This document shows positions 20,317 through 21,369 of a DNA stretch of 45,057 nt, piece by piece. The DNA is from Escherichia phage Eeyore: sequence record PP925821.1; one strand, written 5' to 3'. The notes under the pieces are model-generated. The model was not told the DNA's origin, did not search any database, and saw nothing but the letters and a program-made list of their open reading frames with translations. The position numbers and the translations under genes were made by a program. The stretch's first letter is position 1, and every line of letters starts with the position of its first letter.

Positions 20317-21369
20317 ATGAAAAATACTGTAAATATAAACAGTGTTGAGCTTGTCAACGCTGACTGCCTGCTATACCTCGCAACCCTCCCAGATAACACC
20401 ATTGACCTTATTGTTACGGATCCGCCGTACTTCAAAGTGAAACCCAACGGCTGGGACAATCAATGGAAAGGGGATGAGGATTATCTTCGCTGGCTTGATA
20501 TGTGCCTCGCACAATTCTGGCGAGTGCTAAAACCTGCTGGCAGTCTTTATCTTTTCTCCGGTCACCGCCTGGCGGCAGACATTGAGATCATGATGCGTGA
20601 GCGGTTCAACGTCCTGAACCACATCATCTGGGCTAAACCGTCGGGCCGCTGGAATGGCTGTAATAAAGAGAGCCTGCGCTCTTACTTCCCTGCAACAGAG
20701 CGCATCCTCTTCGCTGAGCATTACCAGGGGCCGTATAAACCAAAGAGCGACGGTTACGCGGAGAAGGGAAGCGAGCTGAAGCAGCATGTAATGACTCCCC
20801 TAATTTCTTATTTTCGGGATGCACGTGAAGCGCTTGGCATATCCTCAAAACAAATAGCCGATGCGACTGGAAAGAAGAACATGGTGTCTCACTGGTTCAG
20901 CGGTAGCCAGTGGCAATTACCGAATGAATCAGATTACCGGAAGCTTCAGTCCCTTTTCACGCAGGTAGCCATCGAAAAGCACCAGAACGGCGAACTGGCA
21001 ACACCACACCACCAGCTGGTGGCTATGTGGCATTCGTTGAATCGCAAGTATTCAGAGCTGCTCGAAGAGTACAAATCACTTCGGCGGCATTTCTCTGTTT
21101 CCGTATCCGTTCCTTATACCGACGTCTGGACACATAAACCCGTTCAGTTTTATCCAGGTAAACACCCATGCGAAAAACCCGCTGACATGTTGCGGCAGAT
21201 CATCAACGCCAGCAGTAAGCCTGGTGATGTGGTGGCTGATTTCTTTATGGGGTCCGGTTCGACCGTGAAAGTCGCGCTGGAACTTGGCCGCCAGGCTATT
21301 GGCGTTGAACTCGAAGAGGAAAGGTTTAATCAGACGATGGGGGAAATACGGGCGTTGGCAGGGGAATAA
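20317..21369 (+). CDS. DNA methyltransferase, N6-adenine/N4-cytosine beta-class
   Basis: 350 aa; N-terminal IVTDPPYF (motif IV) and C-terminal VVADFFMGSGSTVKVALELGRQAIGVELEEERF (motif I); no nuclease partner seen nearby. Confidence 0.8.
   Translation: MKNTVNINSVELVNADCLLYLATLPDNTIDLIVTDPPYFKVKPNGWDNQWKGDEDYLRWLDMCLAQFWRVLKPAGSLYLFSGHRLAADIEIMMRERFNVLNHIIWAKPSGRWNGCNKESLRSYFPATERILFAEHYQGPYKPKSDGYAEKGSELKQHVMTPLISYFRDAREALGISSKQIADATGKKNMVSHWFSGSQWQLPNESDYRKLQSLFTQVAIEKHQNGELATPHHQLVAMWHSLNRKYSELLEEYKSLRRHFSVSVSVPYTDVWTHKPVQFYPGKHPCEKPADMLRQIINASSKPGDVVADFFMGSGSTVKVALELGRQAIGVELEEERFNQTMGEIRALAGE

Follow-up and report, generated by a model that had tools for sequence, protein, structure and literature searches.

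The methylase gene at 20317..21369 on the + strand of the window, the whole 45,057-nucleotide stretch of Escherichia phage Eeyore (PP925821.1) that was analysed, encodes a protein that by its sequence is a full-length orthologue of M.EcoGII, an identity missed in the original prediction. The best explanation for the gene, and probably the correct one, is an orphan SAM-dependent N6-adenine methyltransferase of the M.EcoGII family that is expressed late and marks phage DNA. The methylase, 97%-identical copies of which have already been annotated, is an uncharacterised new member of a known family. The conserved structured RNA leader that abuts its start codon is the only element here that may be new.

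The coding sequence and its landmarks are as follows:

20317..21369, + strand, methylase gene, an ATG-initiated ORF of 350 aa
20419-20430, + strand, motif IV, DPPY (aa 35-38)
20755-21078, + strand, central helical target recognition domain (TRD)/linker region (about aa 147-254)
21241-21264, + strand, motif I, FFMGSGST (aa 309-316)

The original prediction had read this ORF as a beta-class N6A/N4C methylase from a DPPY motif near the N terminus and an FxGSGST motif near the C terminus. The class was confirmed: residues 29-340 matched the PF01555 (N6_N4_Mtase) profile with 151.1 bits (E = 5.9e-44, cut-off 26.7), and the motif order (motif IV, then the TRD, then motif I) is that of an intact beta-class amino-methyltransferase. 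The ORF also matched PHROG families of DNA methyltransferases (E = 3e-99), and its matches to the NCBIfam adenine-methyltransferase models were below the cut-off throughout. The nearest solved structures were all beta-class adenine methyltransferases, namely, 8URK (an unnamed methyltransferase), M.RsrI, M.MboIIA, and CcrM; they cover the N- and C-terminal blocks only and leave a central insert of approximately 170 aa unmatched. A weak HTH_3 match (E = 0.001, under the Pfam cut-off) was found at aa 167-197. An AF2 model of low confidence (mean pLDDT of 64) built from 37 close homologues places helices at residues 147-173, 177-184, 204-223, and 231-254 alongside a beta/alpha core.

Membership in the M.EcoGII family is near-certain from sequence comparison. 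The sequence of M.EcoGII (GenBank EGT69837.1) and those of six reconstructed ancestors were taken from Supplementary Table S1 of PMC11551740. Of 348 residues aligned with M.EcoGII, 271 are identical (78%) and 88% are similar, with single-residue gaps only; the comparison sequence was machine-read from a PDF and holds a few character errors (e.g., H103I), exposed by a near-identical 349-aa protein at locus L188, and identities may shift by about 1 percentage point. In the published architecture of M.EcoGII, residues 1-134 and 260-349 form a Rossmann core and residues 160-237 a TRD of four helices with an HTH; within these published limits the identity is 84% in the N-terminal part of the Rossmann core, 79% in the TRD, 68 to 72% in the linkers, and 72% in the C-terminal part, rising to 86 to 96% in the dimer-interface segments. 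Identity to the reconstructed ancestors is 85 to 86% for Anc291 and Anc289, 74% for SUPREM, and 63 to 65% for the deepest ancestors; the clade placement is by pairwise identity. The N6A/N4C label of the original prediction held as to class, and its ambiguity is narrowed to N6-adenine because the protein is a full-length orthologue of M.EcoGII at 78% identity.

Adenines in all dinucleotide contexts are substrates for M.EcoGII, with 86% of dA modified in vivo and >92% in vitro, and the enzyme also methylates RNA and DNA:RNA hybrids (PMC5778455). All six of the reconstructed ancestors, back towards the split from M.PflMI, were active on DNA and RNA, and nanopore RNA data gave no sequence motif for M.EcoGII, Anc291, or SUPREM (PMC11551740). 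Homologues in STEC have been catalogued as nonspecific, with no methylation motif or signal seen in lysogens (PMC6602927). Because the Eeyore methylase falls within this experimentally bracketed part of the family, the transfer of N6-adenine methylation with little or no specificity appears well founded, and on sequence grounds it is likely that the enzyme has little or no sequence preference. A few substitutions in the TRD could in principle bias its preference for sites.

The model implicit in the original prediction, in which the orphan is an ordinary enzyme of the beta class with one defined motif to protect, would be in keeping with the mostly site-specific membership of PF01555 and with the name "site-specific DNA-methyltransferase" carried by relatives. 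Those names are automatic annotation, however, and the identity to M.EcoGII, both full-length and within the TRD, together with that to active ancestors, makes such an enzyme quite improbable. The nearest characterized enzyme with a specific site, M.PflMI, shares only about 27% identity with M.EcoGII and has no charged linker between its domains (PMC11551740). It is thus unlikely that the Eeyore enzyme has a defined target motif, and a methylome would probably show context-independent m6A.

The gene is under strong constraint. Searches of a large protein database returned 2,901 relatives at E <= 1e-10, and the best 120 of these 2,901 were from Enterobacterales, were 333 to 386 aa in length (nearly all 347 to 359), and were 72 to 98% identical to the Eeyore protein; an exact-sequence look-up gave no record for the exact protein sequence. 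All residues invariant across 37 family members are present. Ratios of dN to dS were 0.04 to 0.13 against relatives wherever dS could be estimated, with synonymous sites saturated against more distant ones, and the gene is clearly maintained by purifying selection as judged from these sequences. Its intactness and these ratios set it apart from a chance ORF. The silence of the homologue in lysogens of related strains (PMC6602927) and the truncated copies that occasionally occur (L078, L144, and L178) could suggest a gene that is inactive or in decay, but a full 350-aa ORF with every invariant family residue, the low dN/dS, and intact near-identical copies numbering in the thousands leave almost no room for this reading.

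The phage itself is an E. coli lambdoid siphovirus of the HK97/mEp043-like type, with a structural module common to mEp043 and mEp213. Its closest relative is Escherichia phage Flotzy (96 to 97% identity over 63 to 90% of each half). The methylase gene has 97% identity to its counterparts in Flotzy and in 17 complete chromosomes of E. coli, all of which are annotated merely as "DNA methyltransferase." The other methyltransferases of the window, the late antiterminator, and the lysis genes are as follows:

13150..14484, + strand, first methyltransferase, Dam-type N6-adenine, 444 aa (PF05869, E = 1.9e-43, aa 19-199 only; phrog_111)
14477..16414, + strand, second methyltransferase, C5-cytosine (PF00145, E = 4e-20)
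18180..18893, + strand, Q-type late antiterminator (PF06323 Phage_antiter_Q, E = 4.3e-40)
21438-21740, + strand, holin (phrog_1350)
21740-22276, + strand, endolysin/lysozyme (PF00959)
22255-22809, + strand, DUF2514 protein (PF10721)

The C5-cytosine gene probably starts at the ATG at 14477, which overlaps the preceding stop codon (ATGCGTGA), and motif I lies within the N terminus of its product (MREIIVDNFAGGGG). The earlier statement that the phage carries three methylases of three families is borne out by the matches to PF05869, PF00145, and PF01555, and this three-methyltransferase load is shared at least in part with Flotzy. The lysis cassette spans 21438..22809 on the + strand, and the terminase begins at 23012. 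A cognate restriction endonuclease was not found beside the methylase, whose neighbours are the phrog_4350 ORF, a 53-aa ORF, terminators, and the holin; there is consequently no restriction-modification pair, and the label "orphan" was apt. No tRNA genes were found in the whole window.

The region between Q and the lysis genes contains an inserted segment and a series of putative transcription signals, as follows:

18924-18952, + strand, candidate late promoter, TTGCAA-N17-CATATT, read from the sequence
18987-19010, + strand, tR'-like hairpin and T-run from the terminator scan, just downstream of Q
19011..20153, + strand, moron insertion of low GC (about 40%), with no counterpart in Flotzy or the ECONIH5 prophage
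19098-19655, + strand, moron ORF of 185 aa, function unassigned (phrog_4350)
19904-20065, + strand, small moron ORF of 53 aa, function unassigned (phrog_2741)
20087-20117, perfect bidirectional terminator, A7-stem-T8, at the moron end
20156..20180, + strand, intrinsic-terminator-like hairpin, CCTCC-loop-GGAGG and T-run, directly 5' of the leader
21374..21399, + strand, hairpin and T-run, 5 nt past the methylase stop codon and before the holin

Homology with Flotzy and the ECONIH5 prophage breaks exactly at 19010, where a conserved block (18101-19010) ends at the terminator, and resumes at 20154-20157, which identifies the 1.1 kb in between as an inserted moron. The pair of phrog_4350 and phrog_2741 ORFs occupies the same slot in Enterobacter mori L009. 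With the low-GC ORF at 19098-19655 upstream and the holin at 21438-21740 downstream, the methylase indeed sits between a moron and the lysis genes, as had been proposed. The stem at 20156-20180 is kept in relatives by compensatory changes (CCTTC/GAAGG and CTGCC/GGCGG). The candidate late promoter agrees with the consensus at 8 of 12 positions, under the threshold of the scanner, and in a sigma-70 scan, promoter-like sites were no commoner than in shuffled sequence, with none upstream of the methylase.

Late, Q-dependent expression of the methylase is likely, as judged by its strand, which is shared with the lysis genes, its location downstream of Q and of the tR'-like terminator, and a slot that is common in lambdoid phages. 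In a lysogen, transcripts from a constitutive late promoter and from the moron would stop at the terminators at 18987-19010, 20087-20117, and 20156-20180, leaving the methylase silent. Upon induction, Q-modified RNA polymerase would read through these tandem terminators, and the methylase would be the first gene of the Q-dependent late transcript, made along with the lysis and head/tail proteins. Terminator-like hairpins lie on both sides of the gene, in keeping with late expression under Q and with silence in lysogens. M.EcoGII goes unexpressed in lysogens, and its constitutive expression sickens cells (PMC5778455); the insulation predicted here for the Eeyore lysogen would agree with that silence.

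The same arrangement is found well beyond Eeyore. Annotated records of Flotzy, the ECONIH5 prophage, mEp460, and an Stx2a phage show Q followed by the methylase and then the lysis genes, all on one strand; in the Stx2a phage, an insertion of three tRNA genes and stx2AB separates the methylase from the holin. In all, 84 related loci were examined, 80 of them drawn from a single genome of each species and the other four from annotated records. In these loci, homologues of the DUF968 gene of the window were found upstream in 40 and homologues of Q in 19, never downstream, and homologues of the lysozyme, holin, and DUF2514 protein were found downstream in 38, 6, and 10, respectively, never upstream; all are on the same strand. 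The slot recurs in many Enterobacterales prophages and fits the layout of a lambdoid late operon, lying on the same strand between Q and the lysis genes and past the tR'-like terminator at 18987-19010. A comparative paper on pR' (PMC6266700) does not mention the methylase.

Between the last terminator and the start codon lies a conserved structured leader, with the following elements:

20186..20316, + strand, conserved structured leader of 131 nt, abutting the ATG
20189-20193/20260-20264, + strand, helix P1, enclosing P2 and P3
20194-20205/20212-20224, + strand, helix P2
20228-20235/20245-20252, + strand, helix P3
20266-20271/20278-20283, + strand, helix P4

The last approximately 33 nt of the leader are unpaired yet conserved and end in an invariant GATCYATG, and no clear Shine-Dalgarno sequence was found in this tail. 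Stop codons are present in all frames, so the leader is not protein-coding. It is 84 to 97% identical where third-codon positions are 44 to 58% identical, a level that exceeds the conservation of the coding sequence. Among the 84 loci, the leader was found in 55, nearly always abutting the ATG, and in essentially every locus that has at least 70% protein identity and available upstream sequence. At locus L188, a gene with about 97% identity to M.EcoGII is preceded by this terminator and leader as well. A covariance model of the leader added loci in Providencia, Serratia, and Chania, with none found in Xenorhabdus or Photorhabdus, and matched the window only once. Of 121 matches in viral contigs to the most conserved 21-mer of the leader, 114 have the methylase downstream at a constant spacing of 130 to 133 nt; three of the others run off the end of the contig, and four are recombinants that keep approximately the first 50 nt only, so that 114 of the 118 evaluable contigs carry both leader and methylase.

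RNAalifold gave a multi-helix fold for an alignment of 52 sequences, and the structure (P1 to P4) was refined by hand on the alignment. In the helices, 89% of cells are paired, compared with 28 to 43% in slid controls, and two-sided changes are seen at 15 pairs. Slid controls gave 3 to 6 such pairs and shuffles gave 5.7 +/- 1.2, and the observed values were not reached in any of 500 shuffles. The single-sequence MFE fold disagrees with the covariation-supported fold at P1, and the alignment-based structure was therefore used. No Rfam family matched 20186-20316 at E <= 1, and no gathering-level match was obtained anywhere in the window. Sub-threshold Rfam matches of the "leader/sRNA" kind fall on the bidirectional terminator of the moron and were rejected as generic terminator similarity. 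Searches for the leader sequence in the searchable literature returned unrelated matches only.

The leader might owe its conservation to recombination, as a junction where phage modules meet, and not to a function as RNA. An identity of 94 to 97% where the synonymous divergence of the coding sequence is saturated could result from recent exchange, and four contigs break inside the leader and continue into unrelated DNA. This is nevertheless unlikely, as P2, P3, and P4 are kept by compensatory double substitutions in more distant loci, with pairing far above that of the slid controls and values reached in none of 500 shuffles, and the distance from leader to ATG is fixed in 114 contigs. The leader is instead proposed to be a candidate cis-acting element for the translational control of a toxic enzyme. 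The most speculative step in the scheme is that a structured leader without a normal ribosome-binding site probably adds translational control. Tentatively, it may represent an undescribed cis-regulatory RNA, joined to essentially every M.EcoGII-family gene of the Enterobacteriaceae and neighbouring groups, with a three-way junction of P1 to P3 followed by P4 and the single-stranded tail. Such an RNA would gate translation of the methyltransferase by binding a ligand, for which SAM and SAH are logical candidates, or a protein of phage or host origin, or the methyltransferase itself. If so, it might act as a second safety lock atop Q antitermination, in a logic like that of Com and Mom of phage Mu, a suggestion that is equally tentative.

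For the enzyme, the proposed role is the deposition of m6A on replicating phage DNA before packaging. Methylation of progeny DNA before packaging, which the original prediction had also envisaged, is plausible, as it is for M.EcoGII itself. Such a mark would weaken the many type I, II, and III systems to which adenine methylation is a barrier and would open the phage DNA to attack by m6A-dependent type IV enzymes. Phage methyltransferases generally serve in anti-restriction (PMC12707154), and protection of the progeny DNA by this methylase is slightly favored. Plasmid DNA with approximately 80% m6A transforms even non-restricting E. coli 1e4- to 1e5-fold less well (PMC5778455); heavy methylation of virion DNA could therefore be counterproductive, and the level may be limited or the targets may include host nucleic acids.

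An alternative is a nonspecific adenine methyltransferase whose selected target is host DNA or RNA late in infection, for shut-off or against competing elements, or RNA that includes its own leader. The action of M.EcoGII on RNA and DNA:RNA hybrids and the poor establishment of heavily methylated DNA (PMC5778455) would be consistent with such a target, as would the conserved structured RNA that is physically joined to the methylase gene, and the authors who studied M.EcoGII state that its natural role is unknown (PMC11551740). The activity of M.EcoGII on DNA is, however, approximately 100-fold above that on RNA (Supplementary Table S3, PMC11551740), the placement of the gene with packaging and lysis genes is as expected for the marking of progeny DNA, and the general anti-restriction role of phage methyltransferases (PMC12707154) also weighs against a host or RNA target, which is considered unlikely.

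The methylase alone is an expected accessory of lambdoid phages. From its identification as an M.EcoGII-type enzyme, the phage would be expected to resist adenine-sensitive restriction systems broadly and to be sensitive to type IV systems that depend on m6A, and methylome work should seek context-independent m6A rather than a motif. M.EcoGII is widely used as a reagent for chromatin footprinting, and for the study of its natural biology an E. coli phage that is inducible and has a simple Q-methylase-holin layout would be convenient, as regards the timing of the enzyme, the extent of virion methylation, and the role of the leader RNA.

Among known systems, Mom of phage Mu is a DNA modification function that is silent in the lysogen and toxic and whose translation is activated by the binding of Com to an mRNA hairpin; its product is N6-carbamoylmethyl-adenine. 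By an analogy that draws in part on a review (PMC12707154), the Eeyore methylase would resemble Mom in concept, as a late, toxic, and broad-spectrum anti-restriction modification under layered control with a structured leader before the start codon, whereas the protein and the chemistry are unrelated and no Com-like gene was identified here. M.PflMI (CCANNNNNTGG) is also of the beta class and has a predicted fold similar to that of the M.EcoGII clade, including the TRD (PMC11551740); it differs in being only about 27% identical to M.EcoGII and in being without the charged inter-domain linker that the Eeyore ORF keeps. M.EcoPA8orf6770P is likewise a prophage-encoded adenine methyltransferase in STEC phages, but its family is MT-A70 (DPPW motif), its reported target is 16S rRNA, and it needs the partner protein PNB-2 (PMC10810198). 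It was rejected as the gene of this slot, as it lies in another prophage region and the Eeyore ORF has DPPY within PF01555 and no MT-A70 match.

The methylases of Stx2a phage LC567841, mEp460 (gp53), and phage cdtI are much closer, with 78 to 81% identity and the same slot, orientation, and leader. Next after the methylase in the Stx phages come tRNA genes and stx, whereas in Eeyore the holin follows directly and the window is without tRNA genes. The closest characterized counterpart is M.EcoGII/M.EcoGI from a prophage of E. coli O104:H4 C227-11, which shares the PF01555 domain, is collinear with the Eeyore protein (349 versus 350 aa), and is also phage or prophage encoded in the Enterobacteriaceae. 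It differs at approximately 22% of residues, and the Eeyore gene lies in an HK97/mEp043-like siphovirus closest to Flotzy, beside an inserted moron.

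The methylase gene, an M.EcoGII-family beta-class N6-adenine methyltransferase gene, is preceded by a structured leader that is more conserved than the methylase coding sequence itself. Of the 118 viral contigs that could be evaluated, 114 carry the leader attached to the methylase. The elements discussed here are as follows.

1-687: Peptidase_S74 chaperone
1346-2083, minus strand: tail protein C-terminal domain
13150-14484: Dam-type methylase gene (444 aa)
14477-16414: C5-cytosine methylase gene
18987-19010: tR'-like, intrinsic-terminator-like hairpin after the late antiterminator gene Q
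19011-20153: moron of low GC content (~40%), an insertion that separates the tR'-like terminator from the methylase module
20087-20117: perfect bidirectional terminator within the moron
20156-20180, plus strand: intrinsic-terminator-like hairpin
20186-20316, plus strand: structured leader of 131 nt, directly 5' of the methylase ATG
21374-21399: intrinsic-terminator-like hairpin

Covariation supports four helices in the leader, the 3' end of which is an invariant GATCYATG that runs into the methylase start. No clear Shine-Dalgarno sequence was found in the leader, and no Rfam family matched it. Four recombinant phages (viral contigs L186, L101, L140, and L166) retain only the first ~50 nt of the leader, comprising most of hairpin P2; the remnant is joined to unrelated AT-rich DNA, which carries a 237-aa open reading frame where the methylase would be. 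The break point within the leader may be a site of module exchange.

Some methylase copies in relatives are shortened or interrupted. The copy in phage Flotzy, the closest phage relative, stops earlier, at 342 aa (L001 2029-3057); that of a Providencia sp. (L078) has a stop after 45 aa; and the gene is disrupted in viral contigs L144 and L178. Occasional methylase loss is therefore tolerated in prophages.

In the Dam-type protein, PF05869 covers aa 19 to 199 only, and the C-terminal extension of ~240 aa contained no Pfam domain. The probable start codon of the C5-cytosine methylase gene is ATG 14477, which overlaps the Dam-type stop (ATGCGTGA), suggesting that the two genes are translationally coupled. 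The C5-cytosine methylase gene is missing from the corresponding position of the Escherichia coli prophage ECONIH5.

The window opens within tail-fibre or chaperone genes that adjoin a DinI-like gene and the integrase (regions concerned: 1-2083 and 4021-5214). The sequence therefore looks like either a prophage or a complete phage genome in permuted form, and not like one starting at cos.

Intrinsic-terminator-like hairpins lie on both sides of the methylase gene. The one at 20156-20180 is preserved across phages by compensatory stem changes. With the tR'-like hairpin after Q, these hairpins form a tandem terminator cassette preceding the late genes. The moron encodes a 185-aa open reading frame (phrog_4350), in which no Pfam domain was detected, and a 53-aa open reading frame (phrog_2741). 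Flotzy and ECONIH5 both lack the moron; a cassette 45% identical to it occupies the equivalent slot in Enterobacter mori (L009 1642-2531).
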